From the NCBI GenBank assembly GCA_964016885.1, contig OZ024741.1, forward strand, positions 175,832,001 to 175,896,000: a stretch of DNA of 64,000 nucleotides, given 5' to 3'. This DNA comes from Eledone cirrhosa (taxonomy: Eukaryota). Shown piece by piece: positions 14,719 through 60,613 of the stretch. Each line of letters opens with the position of its first letter. Position 1 is the first letter of the stretch. The notes beneath the pieces are model-generated. The model was not told the origin of the DNA. It ran no database searches and worked only from the letters and a program-made list of their open reading frames with translations. The position numbers were made by a program, and so were the translations under genes.

Positions 14719-14788
<70 letters not shown>

Positions 14789-14793
14789 GTGTG

Positions 14794-15000
14794 TTGGAGC
14801 TCCGAAATAGCGATGTATATATGAATGTACATATTGTATATTTAATAATATACTGTATGTTTATTATAAAACATTTTGATTGCCGTTTCACTACGAATTT
14901 ATGGGAACGACTATAGTCACATACCGAGCTTCAGCAAAGACAACGGGAAATAACCGATGATCGTTTCTCGTTGTTTGGTGGTTATCAAGGTAACCCATCA
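14794..15000 (+). mobile_element. Family E diverged copy
   Basis: TTGGAGCTCCGAAATAGCGAT..ATATATGAATG..ACTGTATG..ATAGTC..TTCAGCAAA homologous to 22018-22250. Confidence 0.75.
14953..14991 (-). ncRNA. Decayed U3:A8-core hammerhead motif
   Basis: Minus strand ACC-TTGATAA-(14 nt)-GAAA-CGATCA-TC-GGT; stem I ACC/GGT pairs, stem II does not. Confidence 0.55.
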
Positions 15001-16358: not shown

Positions 16359-16536
16359 AACGAGTAGGACCCCGACGGCTGAGCTCAAGCCGTTTCGAAG
16401 GTTAATTCTGGACTGAAATGGCTTGAGCTCAGCCGTCGGGGTCCTACTCGTTCCTATTATCCACTCTACTACCCTAAGTATTGAGTACTTTGGTGCGTTA
16501 TGGTCCACCTGGTTACTTACCACATTTCCTTCGTTA
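16355..16536 (+). mobile_element. PLE terminal family A fold-back insertion in (TA)n
   Basis: Inverted arms ~16355-16398/16413-16456 plus tail matching the 3' end of the PLE at 25100-25221. Confidence 0.85.
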
Positions 16537-16552
16537 TATATATATAGAGAGA

Positions 16553-18733: not shown

Positions 18734-18821
18734 GCTTTCACCGTATTCTTTTTTGACTAAAGAAATTTTAGTCTGATAATGGGGTTAGAACCCTCAGATA
18801 AATGGAAAAAGATGAGTATAG

Positions 18822-18891
18822 ATGTACATGGGAGCCGAACCCACATCTTTGGTTATCCAGACCACTGTGCTACCATTACACCAACATATCA
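18822..18891 (-). other. tRNA-like sequence (repeat-derived or pseudo-tRNA)
   Basis: A-box TGGTGTAATGGTAGC, arm TGGT-CTGGATA-ACCA, B-box-like GGTTCGGCTCCC; acceptor stem poor. Confidence 0.55.
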
Positions 18892-21325: not shown

Positions 21326-21395
21326 ACCTATCTGATGACAACATTAAAGGATTATTATGCAATCACGTTAATGTCTTAGAAATGCGCATAAGGAT
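21326..21395 (+). ncRNA. Type I hammerhead motif (family H)
   Basis: CTGATGA (21332-38), stem II ACATTAA..TTAATGT, GAAA (21379-82), palindromic stem III ATGCGCAT, AUA triplet; stem I imperfect. Confidence 0.65.
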
Positions 21396-21532
21396 TATAT
21401 ATTACACAAAAGATGTAACATAAAAATGTCTCTCTTCTATATAATATTGATACTTCGTCTGATACCTTGTAGGTAGTACCTTAAAGTAACCCACGCGTTG
21501 AGTGCTTAGTTCTATTTACACTAATGGATCGA

Positions 21533-21561
21533 TTATTGTTAACCAAATTTTCTTTAGTTGG

Positions 21562-21601
<40 letters not shown>

Positions 21602-21622
21602 CCAACTAAAGAAAATTTGGTT

Positions 21623-21630
<8 letters not shown>
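21533..21630. repeat. Fold-back of the family H 3' end around a (TA)n spacer
   Basis: TTATTGTTAACCAAATTTTCTTTAGTTGGAATTA and its exact reverse complement. Confidence 0.9.
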
Positions 21631-21711
<81 letters not shown>

Positions 21712-21830
21712 ATATATATATATATGAATGTATATATATTGTATTTTGCAATACACTGTATGCTTAATTAAAAGCATTTCGAAGACTTTACGCTATTGTT
21801 TTAGAGTAGTGATAGTCTCACTTACTTTAA

Positions 21831-21926
21831 ATTTTCAGCAAACAAGGGGAGATAAAGCTGACAGAGCTCTGTTTCGTACTTTTTGGTACTTATCAAAGCT
21901 AAGTACTCTCCCTGTTTGCTGAAAAT
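21831..21926 (-). ncRNA. Type I hammerhead ribozyme with U3:A8 variant core and extended stem I
   Basis: Minus strand AGCT-TTGATAA-GTAC-CAAAAA-GTAC-GAAA-CAGAGCTCTG-TC-AGCT enclosed by a ~19-bp outer stem; GUC triplet. Confidence 0.8.
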
Positions 21927-22153
21927 CAAGAATGTTTAATTCTTATAGAATTCTAGTAATAATCAGGAACTGATTATACAGAGCGGTTGCCGGTCAAGCA
22001 AACATTGAACATTAGAATTGGTGCTCTGAAATAGCGATATATATATATGAATGAATATATAGTGTATTTTGCAATACACTGTATGCTTAATTAAAAGCAT
22101 TTCGAAGAGCTTACGCTATTGTTTTAGAGTAGTGATAGTCTCACTTACTTTAA

Positions 22154-22248
22154 ATTTTCAGCAAACAGGGGAGATAAAGCTGACAGAGCTCTGTTTCGTA
22201 CTTTTTGTTACTTATCAAAGCTAAGTACTCCTCCTGTTTGCTGAAAAT
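22154..22248 (-). ncRNA. Second copy of the U3:A8 hammerhead
   Basis: Same fold; one stem II substitution (GTAA/GTAC). Confidence 0.78.
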
Positions 22249-22312
22249 CATGAATGCTTGATTCTTATAGATACTTATAGAATTCTAGTAATAATCAGGA
22301 ACTGGTTATACA

Positions 22313-24305
22313 GAGCGCTTTTTTTCTACGATAGATACCGCGACAATCAGGACTTCGACACCAAGGAGAGATTCGGATTCAATACCTACAAATCTCCCCC
22401 TCCGGACCCTATGCTCTCACTCTTCGAGAACGACCTTTTCCACTTGGTCAAGAGCATTAAATTCATACCCATACACAACATAATCCTACAACAACTCCAT
22501 AGCAAAATAAAAGAGTATGAAAACACCAACGACATCAGGGTGCACTCGGACAAAACAGGAAACCTCTATTTCGTCAACCCTGACAGATACCACACACTGA
22601 TCAGGAGCAGCCTAAACTCCACCTATAAAAAGACTAACCATTCAATTATCGAGGACATAAATCGAGATGGACAACAAATTACCTCCAGTCTCGGGGTCGC
22701 CGACCGCACTGAACCTCTAGACCCACGGACTCCCTACTTCACACTAAAGGACCACAAATCCGACTTCGACCGCAAACCATCCATTAGGCTTATAAACCCA
22801 ACGAAGTCGGACATAGGAGAATCTGTAAAAAGATCCTAGACCGAGTTATACCAACAGTTAAGCAAAACGTGAGACTTAGCCTATGGGTCAGCATCCAGGA
22901 AGTAATCTCATGGTTCAGGAATATGGAGGACAAACGAGACACAAAATTCATCCAGTTTGACATAGAGAGTTACTATGCATCTATTACCTTACCGCTCCTT
23001 ACGGCCGCCTTGGACTTTGCCGAAACACTCACACCCATCACTGAGCAGGAAAGAAATATCATTCTCCACGCCAGGAAGACAGTCCTACTTTTCGACAACT
23101 CTAAAGGTATAAAGAGAGCTCCCGACTCCCCCTTCGACGTCAGTATGGGCGCGAGGGATTCGGCCGAGGTGACAGATCTTATAGGATTATTCCTACTATT
23201 TAAACTCACCGAAATGTTTCCTGCATTCGGCGGTAGATTGTACCGCGATGATGGGCTCCTCACCCTCAGAGGGTACAACCCCAGTAGTACAGACCGGGTC
23301 CGTAAACAACTAATCAACTTCTTCCGGGACTGGGGATTTAAAATCACCCTACAAACGTCCCTAACCCGAGTCAATTTCCTAGACGTTACCCGTAACTTCG
23401 AAAATGATCTGTACTACCCATACAGGAAACCAAACGACAACCTGCACTACATCCACCGCCGCTCTAACGATCCTAGAAACATCACTAATAACCTGGTTAA
23501 AAACATCCCCCTCTGCATATCTCGTTTGTCCGCTAATGAGCAGATATTCGACGAACACCCGCCTCATTACAACCAGGCCCTCAAGCGGAGTGGCTTCCAG
23601 GAGGAAATATCCTTTTATGCAGCTTCCCTTAGCGGATCCAGCATGCGACACTGCCGCTCATGCAACGTAACGGGGTTCAATCCTTCCCATAATGCCGAGG
23701 TGGTAACACCTATCGGGAAAATCTTCTTTAGACTCCTCAAAAAACACTTTCCACTACAACACCGCTACCACAACATAATCAACAAAAACACCACCAAACT
23801 CTCCTACAGCACCACACATAACTTCGTACAAAACATCGTCTCCTCAAACAACAAAAAGCTCAACCCCTATGGAAGAAATAACCTAGACATCAGTGGAGAG
23901 CCGACCAGGAGGTGTAACTGCCCTGATAGATCTATGTGCCCCCTCAACAACAAATGCCGAGAACGTAACGTGATCTACCAGTGCAACGTGAGGGCGGACA
24001 CCTCCAACAAAGCTTATATAGGATTAACCGCGTGTGACTTCAAGACCCGGCTCTACCAACACCGACGTACTTTCCGAAACCTGGTCCGGCGACATGCCAC
24101 TACACTTTCGGGCCACATCTCGGAACTCCAAGATAATAATATAACCTACAATCTCACTTGGAGCTTACTGTCCAAAGCTAACTCTTACACGGGAGGATGC
24201 CCTCCGTGTAACTTATGCTCGGAGGAAACATTACAAATGTTGTTTTCGAAGGACCAACTCCTAAACAAGAAAGAGGAACTGGTAACCGCATGCAAACACA
24301 GATAG
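22313..24305 (+). pseudogene. PLE RT + GIY-YIG endonuclease, one frameshift near 22830
   Basis: SDKTGNLY, LKDHK..RLINPTKSDIG, FDIESYYASI, MGARDSAE, LYRDDGL, CNCx5CPLx3C linker, NVIY..YIGLT..FKTR..QH, CNLC..E, CKHR. Confidence 0.92.
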
Positions 24306-25025: not shown

Positions 25026-25135
25026 GGAAGTACCCCCTTGAAAAGTTTTGCTATTTATTCTCCAGGCTAAAAATTCTAGTTTAGTCCAGAAATAGCTGTC
25101 GAAACGGTGTGAGCTCTGCTGTCGGCGTCATACTT
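25026..25135 (+). ncRNA. Type I hammerhead (family A) with U3:A8 core and long stem II
   Basis: CCCCC-TTGAAAA (25038-44), stem II GCTATTT..GGCTAAA/TTTAGTCC..AAATAGC, GAAA (25101-04), stem III ACGGT/GCTGT with GAGCTC loop, GUC (25121-23). Confidence 0.68.
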
Positions 25136-25344
25136 TTTCTTATTTCCCACTCTTCTACCCTAAGTATTGAGTACTCTGTGCGTTATGGTTCATCTGGTTC
25201 CAGACCACAATACCTTTGTTATATATATATATATAATATATACATACATGTAGGAACGATCGACTTTCGTCAAATCGGACCGAGGGAACAATGTTTCCGT
25301 TGGTCTTTCCAATTGCTAATACTATCTATCGGTCGCAACTCCAG

Positions 25345-25831: not shown

Positions 25832-26016
25832 AGGAACAAGTAGGACCCCGACGGCTGAGCTCAAGCCGTTTCGACGGCTAATTCTGGACTAGATGTCGAA
25901 ACGGCTTGAGCTCAGCCGTCGCGTTCCTACTCGTTCCTATTACCCACACTACTACCCTAAGTATTGAGTACTTTGGTGCGTTATGGTCCATCTGGTTCCT
26001 TATCACATTTCCTTCG

Positions 26017-26019
<3 letters not shown>
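25831..26019 (+). mobile_element. Family A fold-back insertion in (TA)n
   Basis: Same two termini as 16355-16536. Confidence 0.85.
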
Positions 26020-26063
<44 letters not shown>

Positions 26064-27597: not shown

Positions 27598-27601
<4 letters not shown>

Positions 27602-27700
27602 ATGTTCAAGACCCCGACGGCAGAGCCCACGCCGTTACGACGGCTATTTCTGGACTCTGATGCATTATGGTCCACCTGGTTCCTTACCACTCTTCCTTCG

Positions 27701-27746: not shown

Positions 27747-28794
27747 GCACGTCCTGAAAATATATTTACTCAAGTCAACAATATAGACATATAAAACGCA
27801 GACGATTTCTCTTAATCACTGCTATACATTCCTTGTGTTATAAAAAAGTTCACAGTACATATACATAAATATATACGATTAACATTCCTGTCTTCATATA
27901 TACGATTACCATTCATGCATTTAACATTCTGTTAAAATTATGCATGTCTGCAATCAAAACTGCGTGGTTAAGCAACATATCTCTTACCCACAGACATAGA
28001 TATACATATATATATATACACATATACATGTATAAATAAATATTTGCGTGCGTCTTCCCGCATCGCTCATGTATACATAGACATATATACAATCATAAAA
28101 AACCTATAACACTTTTATATGCATTTTAATAAACATACACGTTTGTATAGAGATAATCAAATATCAATATATTACTAAGGATTATACTTTGGAAATATAA
28201 TTATAACAATATAAATTTAAACTACCATAATTTTGGAAATACAATTACCAGTATAGTCAAAAGGACAAACGAATTCTAGAAATATCAAAGCATTAAATAT
28301 GTTTAAAACACTATAGAGTATTTTCAGTTAAAATAATATGTTTCATATATTTAGTATAGAAATTTATCCTACGTATATTTCAATCTAGATATTGAAAGGA
28401 TAGACTTATGAAAATTATGAGAAGCTATCAGAATCAAAACAAAACTAATAAAAAAAAAATAAATAAATAAAATAAATAAAAATAAAAATAAAAATAAAAA
28501 TAAAAATTAAAATAAGAGTTAAATAAATATTATATCAATATAATTTAAGAATTTGAAAATTTAAAAATTTAAAAAAATTAAAAAAACCCAAGGAATCTAC
28601 AGATATCCTTATATTTGGTATAGAAATTTATCTTACGTATATTTTATTTAAGACATTGGAAGTATAGATATTTTAGAGTAGTTTATTATATCTATGTTTA
28701 TATTTAGGAAGAAAGTTTAAAAAGAAAAAGGTGAAGGAATCTAATGATTTATCGACAGGTTTCATATATTAACTAAATTACTTAATTAATTATA

Positions 28795-31022
28795 CTACAT
28801 TTTAAATTTATATTTATATTTAAACGTTGAGTTCAATCTATGTCTGCAGCAACTGAATAAATTGTTCCTTAAATTAAGGGAATTTTTGGACTTTAATATA
28901 AAGAATATTTCTTCAATACAAAGATCACAATTTTCTGAAGAGGAATTAAAAGGAGTAGCTTTGGTAATAATATTCCAAGTCATCGAATATTTAACATTAT
29001 CTCGTTTTAGGTCCCATAGTAGGCTAGATAGCGAAGTTGAAGATTTTTTGTTTGGATCTGTGAAAGAATTTTTATGATTATTGAAGCGAAATTTAAATTC
29101 TGTAGAGGTAGAACCAACATAGTTAAATGAATTTAAATTTGTTTCAACATTACAATTGTACACTACATTTTTAGCTAAGCAGTTGTTATTTAACGGACAG
29201 TTAGATTTATTTCTACAGTTACAGCTATTCAATTGAATATTGCTTGGGTTATTATTGGTATTTTGGTTAGGTTTTAAATTTCTATTATTAATTCTATTAA
29301 TATTTTGTGCTAAATTTTTGGTGGACGAGTAAGTTAATTTTATAGTGTGTCTATTAAAAATTGAGTAATATTTATGTGGTCTAGGGAAGCGTTTGTCAAG
29401 AGCTTTAAAGAATAGTTTAGCAATAGGGGTTTTAATATTTAGTGAGAAAGGGGGAGCAAACCATAATATATTTCTAGTTCTATTTCTTTTTCGGCTTTTG
29501 GTATTATTGTAATGTTTTCTATTATAGTTGTTAAAGTTGTTACCATAATTAAAATTGTTATTATTTTGGTTAGTTTGCTTATTATTATTATTATCAATGT
29601 ATTTAATTTTATTTCTATATCCAGCTCTACCTAACGCTTCGTTGTAGTACTGCGCTTTTTCATCAAATATGATTTTATTAGATGAAATTCTTGAAATTCT
29701 TTCTTGAACAGAGTTCAATATAGTATTTTTAACAGATCTGGGGTGATTAGAGTTAAAATTAACATAATTCAAGTTCTCATTTAGTTTATGAAATGGATAA
29801 TGAAGGCATGTGCTGAGATTTAGTGTTACGTCAAGAAAATTGACTATTTTATGGTTATTCTCTATTTCTACTTTTAGGTTAAGGTAATAAAAAAATTGTA
29901 TAATTTGTTTTCTTTTTCTATTTAGTTCACAGCTTTTATTTTGTATAAGTAAAAGCATGTCATCAGGATATAAGCCTCCGGTTACACCTGGTATTTTTCT
30001 ATGTAGCGAATTAATTATAAATAGGCCCACAAGGTCCGTTACCTGAGCTGAGTCTGATGATCCCATAGTTATGTCGAAATTATTATTTCTATCTGCCCTA
30101 GTCCAGAGTTGGTTATTAAATTCTATCAATGTTTTCCTTGCCGATAATATAATGTGTATTTCATTGCTAGTTAGGTCTGTATGTTTAAATGCGTAATTTA
30201 GTGCCTTATTCAGTAGATTAGGAGTGATAGATGAATAGTAGTTAACAATATCCAGCTGAATAAACTTATTATCATAGTTATATTTAATTTCTTTAAACCA
30301 ATCGATAACCTCACTAGTCCCTTTCCATAATTTTAAGTAAGATAAATTTGGTAAGTTTTTAATTTGTTGTATTACCCTGTCTAGAATATTTTTGCTAAGT
30401 TTGCCCAGGTCAGATTTAGATGGTGCAATTAATCTGACTGGTAAATCATTTTCAAAGTTTCTTTTGTGATCCTTCATATTGATCTTAGGTTTCCTAGGCA
30501 TGAAGGGTTGTGTTTTATTCTCAATGTCTAATTCATGCATTATACAAGATGCATCTGTATTCAGTTTTTCAAGTTCGTCCTTATTTGCTACATTGTACTT
30601 TTTCCTTAGTTCTTTCAATATAAGGTCGTTATAAATGTACTTTTGTATTCCATAAAGATTATTAGTTTTGTCCGACTTCACTAAAATTTTCTATGTTTTC
30701 TCCAAGTTTTCAATATTATCCTTAATACTTCTTAAGCAATCCTGGCCTTTAAGTTCTTTCTGAATTTGATGCCTTGGATGATAGATACGATATCATTTTC
30801 AAAATCCATTAGTAGTTTGTTGTGGGGTGGATTTTTTTTAGATTTGAAAATGTTATCCAGATTTGAAACATTTTCATTTAGATTAGATTTATCAGAGTGG
30901 AAAGCACGCCACCTGATTCTTCTTATAAAAGAGACTGATTTTTCTATTAATTATTTAATAAAATCTTTGTTCCTAGGTAGAGGTATGTCTTTTAGAGAAG
31001 AAGAGATCTTAAAGAATTCCAT
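28795..31022 (-). pseudogene. PLE RT + GIY-YIG (N-terminal TAA stop and a frame disruption near 30690; 628-aa open C-terminal part)
   Basis: MEFFKISSSLKDIPLP..RIRWRAF, SDKTNNLY, MKDHK, LDIVNYYSSI, MGSSDSAQ, LYPDDML, CNCRNKSNCPLNNNC, NVVY..YVGST..FKFR..NH, CDLC.EE, CRHR. Confidence 0.92.
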
Positions 31023-31198
31023 TTTTTCAGTTATAATGTAAAGCGCTCAACAATACAGGAGCAGAATATATGCAAAATTTTTATTTAAAATGTTGGGATA
31101 CAACAAGTAAACATTTTTATAACTGATATAAAGCACTCGACAAGTATTTGGAGTAGATATACGATATTAATAAATGGAAACTATATTTATAAAACCAT

Positions 31199-31272
31199 AT
31201 TTATTTCATTATACATATTTCAGGGATACCAAATTAAATTAAGGTATGCCTTCATGAGACAAAATACAATAT
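31199..31272 (-). ncRNA. Family F hammerhead with mutated core (CTCATGA)
   Basis: Homologous to 34822-34895; G5C substitution. Confidence 0.65.
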
Positions 31273-31319
31273 ATAACAGTTTTAAAAATAAGCTTTGACG
31301 TACCCTATTAAAATACAAC

Positions 31320-33129
31320 AAAAAGTACAAGGTAGCAAATAAGGACGAACTTGAAAAACTGAATACAGATGCATCTTGTATAATGCATGCATTAGACATT
31401 GAGAATAAAACACAACCCTTCATGCCTAGGAAACCTAAGATCAATATGAAGGATCACAAAAGAAACTTTGAAAATGATTTACCAGTCAGATTAATTGCAC
31501 CAACTAAATCTGACCTGGGCAAAATTAGCAAAAATATTCTAGACAGGGTAATACAACAAATTAAAAACTTACCAAATTTATCTTACTTAAAATTATGGAA
31601 AGGGACTAGTGAGGTTATCAATTGGTTTAAAGAAATTAAATATAACTAGGATAATAAGTTTATTCAGCTGGATATTGCTAACTACTATTCATCTATCACT
31701 CCTAATCTACTGAATAAGGCACTAAATTACGCATTTAAACATACAGACCTAACTAGCAATGAAATACACATTATATTATAGGCAAGGAAAACATTGATAG
31801 AATTTAATAACCAACTCTGGACTAGGGCAGATAGAAATAATAATTTCGACATAACTATGGGATCATCAGACTCAGCTCACGTAACGGACCTTGTGGGCCT
31901 ATTTATAATTAATTCGCTACATAGAAAAATACCAGGTGTAACCGGAGGCTTATATCCTGATGACATGCTTTTACTTATACAAAATAATAGCTGTGAACTA
32001 AATAGAAAAAGAAAACAAATTATACAATTTTTTAATTACCTTAACCTAAAAGTAGAAATAGAGAATAACCATAAAATAGTCAATTTTCTTGACGTAACAC
32101 TAAATCTCAACACATGCCTTCATTATCCATTTCATAAACTAAATGAGAACTTGGATTATGTTAATTTTAACTCTAATCACCCCCAGATCTGTTAAAAATA
32201 CTATGGTGAACTCTGTTCAAGAAAGAATTTCAAGAATTTCATCTAATAAAATTATATTTGAAGAAAAAGCGCAGTACTACAACGAAGCGTTAGGTAGAGC
32301 TGGATATAGAAATAAAATTAAATACATTGATAATAATAATAATAAGCAAACTAACCATAATAATAACAATTTTAATTATGGTAACAACTTTAACAACTAT
32401 AATAGAAAACATTACAATAATTCCAAAAGCCGAAAAAGAAATAGAACTAGAAATGTATTATGGTTTGCTCCCCCTTTCTCACTAAATATTAAAACCCCTA
32501 TTGCTAAACTATTCTGTAAAGCTCTTGACAAACGCTTCCCTAGAACACATAAATATTACTCAATTTTTAATAGACACACTATAAAATTAACTTACTCGTC
32601 CACCAAAAATTTAGCACAAAATATTAATAGAATTAATAATAGAAATTTAAAACCTAACCAAAATACCACTAATAACCCAAGTAATATTCAATTGAATAAC
32701 TGTAACTGTAGAAATAAATCTAACTGTCCGTTAAATAACAACTGCTTAGCTAAAAATGTAGTGTACAATTGTAATGTTAAAACTAATTTAAATTCATTTA
32801 ACTATGTTGGTTCTACCTCTACAGAATTTAAATTTCGCTTCAATAATCATAAAAATTCTTTCACAGATCCAAACAAAAAATCTTTAACTTCGCTATCTAG
32901 CCTACTATAGGACCTAACATGAGATAATGTTAAATATTCGGTGACTTGGAATATTATTACCAAAGCTACTCCTTTTAATTCCTCTTCAGAAAATTGTGAT
33001 CTTTGTATTGAAGAAATATTCTTTATATTAAAGTCCAAAAATTCCCTTAATTTAAGGAACAGTTTATTCAGTTGCTGCAGACATAGATTGAACTCAACGT
33101 TTAAATATAAATATAAATTTAAAATGTAG
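31320..33129 (+). pseudogene. PLE RT + GIY-YIG with TAG stops (31647, 31779, 32908) and a frameshift near 32185
   Basis: Four track ORFs reassemble the 628-aa protein of the left arm. Confidence 0.92.
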
Positions 33130-34821
33130 TATAATTAATTAAGTAATTTAGTTAATATATGAAACATGTCGATAAATCATTAGATTCCTTCACCTTTTTC
33201 TTTTTAAACTTTCTTCCTAAATATAAACATAGATATAATAAACTACTCTAAAATGTCTATACTTCCAATGTCTTAAATAAAATATACGTAAGATAAATTT
33301 CTATACTAAATATAAGGATATCTGTAGAATCCTTGGGTTTTATAAATCTTTTAAATTTTTAAATTTTTAAATTTTTTAAACTTTTTAAAATTTTTAAAAT
33401 TTTTAAAATTTTAAAATTATATTGATATAATATTTATTTAACTCTTATTTTTATTTTTATTTTTATTTTTATTTTTTTATTTATTTATTTTTTATTTTTT
33501 TATTTTTTTTATTTGTTTTGTTTTGATTCTGATAGCTTCTCATAATTTTCATAAGTCTACCCTTTCAATATCTAGATTGAAATATACGTAGGATAAATTT
33601 CTATACTAAATATATGAAACATTATTTTAACTTAAGATACTCTATAGTGTTTTAAACATATTTAATGCTTTGATATTTCTAGAATTCGTTTGTCCTTTTG
33701 ACTATACTGATAATTGTATTTTCAAAATATAATCCTTTGGTATTTTAAATTTATATTGTTATAATTATATTTCCAAAGTATAATCCTTAGTAATATATTG
33801 ATATTTGATTATCTCTATACAAACGTGTATGTGTATTAACATGCATATAAAAGTGTTATAGGTTTTTTATGATTGTATATATGTCTTTATATACATGAGC
33901 GCTGCGGGAAGACGCACGCAAATATTTATTTATACATGTATATGTGTATATATATATATGTATATCTATGTCTGTGGGTAAGAGATATGTTGCTTAACCA
34001 CGCAGTTTTGATTGCAGACATGCATAATTTTAACAGAATGTTAAATGCATGAATGGTAATCGTATATATGAAGACAGGAATGTTAATCGTATATATTTAT
34101 GTATATGTACTGTGAACTTTTTATAACACAAGGAATGTATAGCAGTGATTAAGAGAAATCGTCTGCGTTTTATATGTCTATATTGTTGACTTGAGTAAAT
34201 ATATTTTCAGGACGTGCGTATATATATATATATATATATTTGTGTGTCTTTGCCTAAGATACTGATTTCTCTAGCATTTTGGTTGATTAAACCCAAATTT
34301 TGGTATATTGATCTCAAGTTTTAAACTATACATGTAGTCATCATTGAACAATGCTTAATTGCTCATATTATATATTTATGTCCCATTCATGAATATTAAT
34401 ATTTATAGTTTTATTATTCATTTCATATAAATTGTTAACTCAACTTAATATGACATGACGCAAAATGTTCATTATTTCCCCCTCTCTCTATATAATATTT
34501 CTCTCTCTTGAGTTTTCCTATCTGTCTAATGATTTAATATCTCTTTGTTGCTTTCCTCTGTTTTTCTTATTTCTTATTTCTTCCTTTTTTCTTTCTTTCC
34601 TCCTGTCTTTATTTATCTCTTTCTTTTTTCTGCATGCATCTCTCTCTGATACTTCTCCACTTTGTTTTCTTTCTCTCTCTCCGTCTTTTTCTTTCTCTCC
34701 GTGTTTTTCTAATTGTATGACTTATTAAAATAATATAAACAACTCACTATCCGGATGGCTTCCAAAAATAATGGTTGCATTTTAATAGGGTACGTCAAAG
34801 CTTATTTGTAAAACTGTTATA

Positions 34822-59699: not shown

Positions 59700-59776
59700 A
59701 TATTTATTTCATTATATATATTTCAGGGATATCATATTAAAAATATGTTATGCCTTCTTCAGACAAAATACAATAT
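59700..59776 (-). ncRNA. Family F hammerhead
   Basis: CTGAAGA-AGGCATAACATATT-TTT-AATATGATATCCCT-GAAA-TATATA-TA. Confidence 0.78.
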
Positions 59777-59971: not shown

Positions 59972-60048
59972 ATATTGTATTTTGTCTGAAGAAGGCATAA
60001 CATATTTTTAATATGATATCCCTGAAATATATATAATGAAATAAATAT
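59972..60048 (+). ncRNA. Family F hammerhead
   Basis: CTGAAGA at 59986-92, GAAA at 60024-27, identical to the inverted copy. Confidence 0.78.
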
Positions 60049-60115: not shown

Positions 60116-60346
60116 AGTTTTATAAATAATTTTGACGTACCCTATTAGAAGCGACCATTACTTTTGGAAGCTGTCTGGATAGTAATGGTCGCTTCTAATA
60201 GGGTACGTCAAAATTATTTATAAAACTGTTTATATATTGTATTTTATCTGACGAAGGCATGCCATATTTTAATGTGGTATCCCTGAAATATGTATAATGA
60301 AATAAATATGGTTTTATAAATATAGTTTCCATTTATTTAATATCGT
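60108..60346 (+). mobile_element. Family F insertion with ~55-bp fold-back and hammerhead (60235-60310)
   Basis: CTGACGA 60248-54, stem II ATGCCATAT/ATGTGGTAT, GAAA 60285-88, AUA triplet. Confidence 0.85.
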
Positions 60347-60365
60347 ATATATATATATATATTTA

Positions 60366-60613
60366 TAGGAAAATGTATGACCCCCGACAGCAGAGCTCAA
60401 GCCGTTTCGACGGATATTTCTGGACTAAATTAGAATATTTAGCGCGGTAAAAAAAAAAAAAAAGAATTCTAATTTAGTCCAGAAAAGCCGTCGAAACGGC
60501 TTGAGCTCTGGCGTCGGGGTCATACATTTTCCTATTACCCACTCAATACCCTAAGTATTGAGTACTCTGGTGCGTTATAGTCCATCTGGTTCCTTACCAC
60601 AACTCCTTCGTTA
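60366..60613 (+). mobile_element. Family A fold-back insertion
   Basis: Same two termini as the other A copies; spacer contains an oligo-A run. Confidence 0.85.

Follow-up and report, generated by a model that had tools for sequence, protein, structure and literature searches.

According to our analysis, a unit of 322 nt from the genome of Eledone cirrhosa is very probably a non-autonomous retrozyme of Penelope type, in which a single hammerhead on the minus strand is likely to be self-cleaving, copies are likely to be placed into (TA)n by enzymes borrowed from Penelope-like elements (PLEs), and a hammerhead-like motif on the plus strand is likely to be a part of the tail and not a ribozyme. 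We regard these copies, named here family E, as a new, young and abundant family of non-LTR retrozymes and a member of a class already known in metazoans. The unit was met in a stretch of 64,000 nucleotides (contig OZ024741.1, positions 175,832,001 to 175,896,000), called the window below, where a first-pass annotation had read it as an ambisense, viroid-like repeat with hammerheads on opposite strands. The parts of the locus on which the argument depends are, in coordinates of the window, as follows.

21565 to 21739, no strand: (TA)n target microsatellite called by TRF, merging with the tail-less (inner) end of the element; other copies also end in (TA)n.
21722 to 22317, minus strand: arm of the family E1 retrozyme, 1.85 units, with a fixed 3' end at the left and a 5'-truncated end at the right.
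21828 to 21927, minus strand: hammerhead 1, with a long stem I, core at 21896-21890 (U3-A8) and predicted cut at 21860/21859 (scan, covariation, Rfam).
22178 to 22222, minus strand: hammerhead 2, core at 22218-22212, predicted cut at 22182/22181, one mismatch in stem II (scan, Rfam).
21860 to 22181, minus strand: predicted 322-nt monomer, running from one hammerhead cut to the other.
14787 to 14992, minus strand: single truncated copy of the sister subfamily E2 (unit of about 326 nt), recognised by sequence comparison.

The tandem unit of about 323 bp that had been described at 21722..22318 is real: two copies are present, both partial, with 92% identity over 285 nt, and they are offset by 322 nt if the ribozymes are compared and by 323 nt if the left ends are. 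TRF, run on the window, did not call this unit as an array, which is explained by the presence of fewer than two full copies. Just to the left of the arm a flank of about 35 bp is duplicated in inverted orientation around the (TA)n tract (21532-21566 and 21597-21631), and this may be a repair product of a nicked target or an effect of the assembly.

Hammerheads were searched for with a relaxed scan of both strands over the whole 64-kb window. On the minus strand each E1 copy was found to possess a complete hammerhead of type I, as had been noted earlier, with a UUGAUAA core, GAAA and a GUC cut; stem I is AGCU/AGCU extended into a long helix, stem II has 4 bp and stem III is palindromic. All the elements that define this ribozyme type (core C3/U3-U-G-A-N-G8/A8-A, GAAA, NUH and three covarying stems) are found on this strand, and the U3-A8 core is a variant already described in PLEs (PMC4209133). 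Rfam model HH9 matched the minus strand only, with 28.5 bits and E 5e-5 for the first copy, which is under the gathering score of 52, and with 17.6 bits and E 0.16 for the second. None of 3000 shuffled units reached the quality of this hammerhead. Across an alignment of 45 copies 93.6% of the cells are paired and 38 are double-change cells, values inflated by the relatedness of the copies; none of 500 shuffles was equally high, and slid registers gave 16-38% pairing. A G-U wobble, which pairs only on the minus strand, stands in stem I of 18 of the 39 rows. The UUGAUAA core is retained in 73/93 E1 and 26/31 E2 matches to a pattern that tolerated at most one core mismatch. In E2 the core is unchanged while the sequences of stems I-III differ, and the first pair of stem II is C-A, so that the ribozyme of this subfamily may be weak. 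Folding z-scores of the monomer region were -7.2 for the minus and -5.6 for the plus strand; both fold well, and the score does not discriminate between them.

The earlier prediction that minus-strand RNA would cleave itself into a 322-nt monomer is thus supported for a unit of retrozyme type, with cut sites exactly as first given. The sequence features of non-LTR retrozymes are also present, namely a tandem unit within 150-450 nt, a type I hammerhead in each, no ORF and a GC content below 50%. In the genome 2,956 exact matches were counted for a 28-mer of the unit and none for its reversed control. The loci that we examined were 30 best matches, 29 of E2 and 63 distinct ones that had been selected by pattern along one contig in genome order (70 before removal of 7 duplicates of the same insertion). 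Long arrays exist in the genome: L112 with 14 units and L250 with at least 17 show 87-89% identity within the array, consist of one subfamily each and are candidate source loci.

The claim of a second ribozyme on the opposite strand concerns the following two overlapping features.

22005 to 22039, plus strand: hammerhead look-alike with a core-like stretch at 22005-22011, GAAA at 22028-22031 and UA at 22038-22039, judged not to be a ribozyme.
22008 to 22037, minus strand: Penelope-type tail of about 30 nt, bounded by two fixed ends, an outer one at about 22008-22011 and an inner one at about 22037-22046 (an internal TA run), and defined by clustered arm starts.

The plus-strand letters at 22019-22039 are as they were quoted, and their likeness to the family F hammerhead extends to CT-GAAA-TA..A-TA and no further. 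The diverged copy at 14787-14992 indeed keeps both motifs at about equal spacing, for which plain homology suffices. The 5' half of the would-be ribozyme had been reported absent from every copy; the window copy, reading TTGAACA, agrees with this, but elsewhere TTGAAAA, which fits UUGANAA, sits 16 nt before the GAAA in 41 of 76 full E1 units. It was missed earlier because of the window copy's own reading and because tailed ends cut through the 7-mer. Core, GAAA and UH occur together on the plus strand in 35/76 full E1 units and in 0/17 E2 units, and not in the window copy. The absence of such a core from full-length copies, proposed in the first-pass annotation as decisive against a plus-strand ribozyme, is consequently what we see in E2 (0/17) and not in E1. 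On that ground alone the ribozyme is not rejected; what speaks against it is stem I, the cost of folding and the state of the sister subfamily.

Stem I of the plus motif has 1 bp in every register, short of the at least 2-3 bp that would count as a stem, and stem II can form only with a bulge of 2 nt and with A-U as its first pair. Imposing the plus fold takes 17.5 kcal/mol; the corresponding figure for the minus hammerhead is 3.7. The relaxed scan of the window gave no plus-strand hammerhead within the unit, and Rfam gave no hammerhead match for the motif. The E2 copy at 14794 has UG in place of UH at the would-be cut, as do 12 of 17 E2 units, in which cleavage there would be impossible. There are about 11 fixed differences between E1 and E2 in the 70-nt motif region and three of them strike the would-be G5, A6 and H17, so the catalytic positions are not conserved between the subfamilies on the plus strand, whereas the minus core is. 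The reading of hammerheads on opposite strands within one unit is therefore not upheld. Another stretch, CTGATTA at 21970-21976, was considered as a plus core and rejected, since G8 is missing and the stretch lies in a hairpin arm that is replaced in E2.

We consider it very unlikely, though worth stating, that E1 has gained a weak hammerhead of this kind, dimer- or protein-assisted, and processes both strands. The joint presence of UUGAAAA, GAAA and UA in nearly half of the full E1 units, the palindromic UAGCUA stem III in 19/60, the position of the inner insertion end near the would-be plus cut, and the requirement of some PLE hammerheads for a protein (PMC11167929) all speak for it. When units were shuffled, 371/3000 gave core, GAAA and UH in order and only 28/3000 matched the candidate, by a criterion fitted post hoc; chance origin of the motif is plausible, not overwhelming. 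Against it, besides the stems and the fold, are the A8 to C change in the window copy, the lack of any compensatory changes seen in the motif, and the outer insertion end, which cuts through the plus 'core'. E2 has the same two insertion ends as E1 without plus core or UH, and the inner end is thus independent of plus-strand cleavage. The narrower version, in which E1 would have recently gained an antisense hammerhead core on the tail where reverse transcription starts and would cleave it with the help of a protein or a trans-partner, has in our opinion an equally slim chance; if true, an animal retrozyme encoded in the genome would have a ribozyme on each strand, which would be a step in the direction of a viroid-like replicon.

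Conservation of the plus-motif letters has another likely source, their pairing with partners elsewhere in the unit, CAGAGC with GCUCUG and AUAGCG with CGCUAU, in both subfamilies. RNAalifold, applied to 26 tail-region sequences, found a weak consensus of -4 kcal/mol that does not discriminate the strand. The motif is the complement of the tail, and it would be logical to suggest that it is likely nothing other than this tail, lying between two sites where copying starts. Viroids and ambisense viroid-like circles of the Avsunviroidae type are similar to the family E unit in size and in a highly paired fold. Family E differs from them in having a credible ribozyme in one polarity only, in being encoded by a genome and in spreading as a retrotransposon does, and so lacks what marks a viroid-like element, ribozymes of both polarities in one unit. 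With stem I missing, with G5, A6 and H17 lost in E2 and with the motif coinciding with a Penelope tail, processing of both strands and the viroid-like layout are not borne out.

The tail is seen in the insertion ends. Among 113 arms the starts cluster at unit positions 149-154 (37 arms; outer end, about 22008-22011 in the window) and 176-187 (57 arms; inner end, the TA run at about 22037), almost always in (TA)n, and the opposite ends are scattered. The fixed end at the target corresponds to the 3' side of the RNA, which points to the ribozyme-bearing minus strand as the template. About half of the loci have two arms joined head-to-head, and in 29/30 two-armed E1 insertions (28/29 strictly, L129 being misclassed) exactly one arm has the tail; the same holds for 7/7 E2 loci and for 5/6 unambiguous cases in the family of the neighbouring ORF. 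With its tail, 5' truncation, inverted arm and (TA)n target, family E shows the insertion anatomy of a PLE. An anole PLE has two internal start sites of reverse transcription downstream of the hammerhead, flanking a tail of 30-40 nt (PMC11167929), and the tail is described as carried by one of the inverted pLTRs (PMC3846280, PMC8557442). True opposite-strand hammerhead pairs do exist in family E, at 17/60 loci, where they arise from the inverted arms, as was noted earlier through inversion for Schistosoma PLEs (PMC4209133).

In the comparison of arm subfamilies (60 loci, with the complex loci L111-L113 excluded) both arms belonged to one subfamily by shared diagnostic ribozyme variants in 17/17 cases, against 23% of random pairs. 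From the sequences of the arms we infer that a single complex makes a nick in both strands and that priming on the two strands begins at different start sites of one RNA species. Alternatively, the second arm could come from fold-back or self-priming on an antisense template, a model proposed for rotifer PLEs (PMC3846280), and subfamily variants common to both arms as well as the palindromic junctions that do occur agree with it. We find this origin unlikely: either arm may be the longer one, and tailed arms hold sequence with which the tail-less arm does not begin (e.g. L006, L008), neither of which a simple fold-back could produce, and the partner arm is sometimes of another family. At one locus (L118:1383-2010) a sub-unit of 163 nt, comprising the tail region and no ribozyme, is present in four tandem copies that stand head-to-head with a different RT-coding element, an arrangement that points to either recurrent template jumps or a circle of smaller size.

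The partner of the E1 arm in the window is such a foreign element.

22318 to 24305, plus strand: ORF of a different Penelope-like family, 5'-truncated, with a frameshift near 22830, encoding RT and C-terminal GIY-YIG, head-to-head with the E arm.
25033 to 25222, plus strand: end of the pLTR that belongs to the ORF family itself, containing a degenerate hammerhead in sense orientation (core UUGANAA at about 25038-25044, GAAA at 25101-25104, cut at about 25123), read by eye and missed by the relaxed scan; its outer end is in (TA)n.

The Penelope-like ORF reported next to the repeat is confirmed and starts directly after the E arm. Its look-alikes in the atlas score 0.95-0.98 and carry HTH_animal, RVT_1 and GIY-YIG, and Pfam and PDB searches with the ORF found nothing; RT followed by GIY-YIG, together with a pLTR with a sense hammerhead, places it among the PLEs with a C-terminal endonuclease (EN+). 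The two elements meet directly and head-to-head at 22317/22318, and the far end of each is in (TA)n, which could suggest that the unit is an inverted pLTR of this ORF or its antisense control element. We hold this to be extremely improbable and reject the unit as pLTR of its neighbour, because 0/19 other copies of the ORF family have the unit upstream, these having their own pLTR with a sense UUGACAA hammerhead instead, and because E arms are found next to several unrelated PLE families in this arrangement too. The E arms have 41 ends that are not joined to an inverted arm of their own, and about 7 of these adjoin a different element (PLE-type ORF, pLTR or hammerhead element), head-to-head in every case, by a reading partly done by eye (L001, L020, L023, L118, L124, L135, L143). 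No autonomous PLE with an E-like pLTR was seen among the 19 ORF-family loci or the 93 E loci. In the window the tail is missing from the E arm and the outer end of the ORF arm is retained. This agrees with the rule of one tail per insertion, and on these sequence grounds the locus is probably one composite insertion made from two RNAs; an insertion with a deletion beside an older copy could also have produced the junction.

Further elements of related kinds lie in the window. The ORF family is also present as short inverted copies that consist of the pLTR alone and repeat its pattern of inner and outer ends, at 16360-16540, 25840-26020, 27600-27700 and 60370-60612, and a second Penelope-like family forms a large inverted pair at 27843-34122, with an open frame of 631 aa (28795-30690, minus strand) and an asparagine-rich stretch. 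Hammerheads of family F, which is separate from family E and has a CUGAAGA/CUGACGA core and an 8-bp stem I, occur at 59713-59762 (minus), 59986-60035 (plus) and 60248-60296 (plus), in inverted arms ending in (TA)n. At about 21330-21400 (plus) there is a degenerate motif resembling a hammerhead, CUGAUGA..GAAA-UGCGCA-UA, whose stem I is mismatched, and an Rfam tRNA match of 40.2 bits at 18820-18890 (minus) is possibly a tRNA-derived SINE head.

Whether copies respect the cut bears on the template. Of 1,230 copies that are exact up to the cut, 1,185 (96%) continue through it, and 43/113 arms are longer than one unit; with the arrays, this means that the template spans the cut, as a ligated circle or an uncleaved multimer. 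The 45 exceptions at the cut were compared by manual reading with 65 exceptions at a single control position one base earlier, and gave, genome-wide, 14 clean stops (12 insertions) against 4, and 6 ambiguous jumps against 3. In three insertions (L085, L189, L193) both arms stop at the cut, and in an unbiased sample of loci stops at the cut were not significantly enriched (5/50 in a 7-nt window, p 0.16). On balance the stops lend weak support to cleavage of the minus hammerhead in vivo. In L189 (G000:C10:13520548-13520624) the two inverted arms end exactly at the cut and are joined by about 30 A/T, a linker that resembles tailing of a cleaved end.

It is a real possibility, although we doubt it, that the template is uncleaved read-through RNA of tandem arrays and not circles, the hammerhead being conserved but dispensable for copying. 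The great majority of copies pass through the cut, long arrays exist and could serve as masters, and an anole PLE used mainly unprocessed RNA in vitro (PMC11167929). On the other side, strong covariation of the stems among amplified subfamilies indicates selection for cleavage, the three insertions named above have both arms ending at the cut, and circles are reported for animal retrozymes (PMC7229834). This possibility touches a single step, the fate of the monomers, and is compatible with everything else in the preferred reading of a Penelope-driven retrozyme.

Taking these data together, we propose the following order of events. The minus strand would be transcribed, as the polarity of the ends suggests, and the U3-A8 hammerhead is predicted to cut it at GUC, for which the genome gives weak support. 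Monomers may then be ligated into circles, or uncleaved multimers may serve as template, two alternatives that the copies do not separate. A Penelope RT/endonuclease would nick both strands of (TA)n and start priming on each strand at a separate internal site, the two sites lying about 30 nt from each other, as judged from the insertion ends. Both cDNAs would cross the cut site and join head-to-head, yielding the inverted arms, the one tail and often the true opposite-strand hammerheads, a structure visible in the insertions themselves. At the window locus the second arm would probably come from an RNA of a different Penelope family, which accounts for the adjacent ORF.

Among known systems family E is closest in several respects to metazoan non-LTR retrozymes (Cervera and de la Pena 2020, PMC7229834; Li et al. 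2026, bioRxiv 10.64898/2026.07.22.740005), with which it shares a low-GC unit of about 300 nt, one type I hammerhead in each, no ORF, a range from monomers to long arrays, thousands of copies and co-occurrence with PLEs. It differs from them in the U3-A8 core, in the palindromic stem III of 4 bp, and in copies that are mostly dispersed inverted insertions of 1-2 units in (TA)n. With EN+ PLEs (PMC8557442, PMC3846280, PMC11167929) the common features are 5' truncation, the inverted head-to-head arm, the tail of about 30 nt at one end, (TA)n targeting and two start sites downstream of a sense hammerhead; unlike these elements, family E has no ORF, its unit closes on itself, and no autonomous parent was found among the loci analysed. 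Minimal hammerheads of Schistosoma PLEs (PMC4209133) also form opposite-strand pairs, 100-700 bp apart, with the U3-A8 core, and stems II and III are full in family E in contrast to them. Our literature search, mainly of freely accessible texts, returned no report of family E or of an animal retrozyme with ribozymes of two polarities.

The ambisense claim would link retrozymes to ambisense RNA replicons, and the data do not carry this link. What the copies of family E do record is Penelope insertion itself: start sites used one per arm, arms usually drawn from one source RNA, a partner arm that is sometimes the RNA of another family, and a few copies that stop at the ribozyme cut. The 322-nt unit also offers a compact substrate for in vitro tests. 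These footprints support the mobilisation of animal retrozymes by Penelope elements, which the sources available to us had proposed from co-occurrence and pLTR homology.
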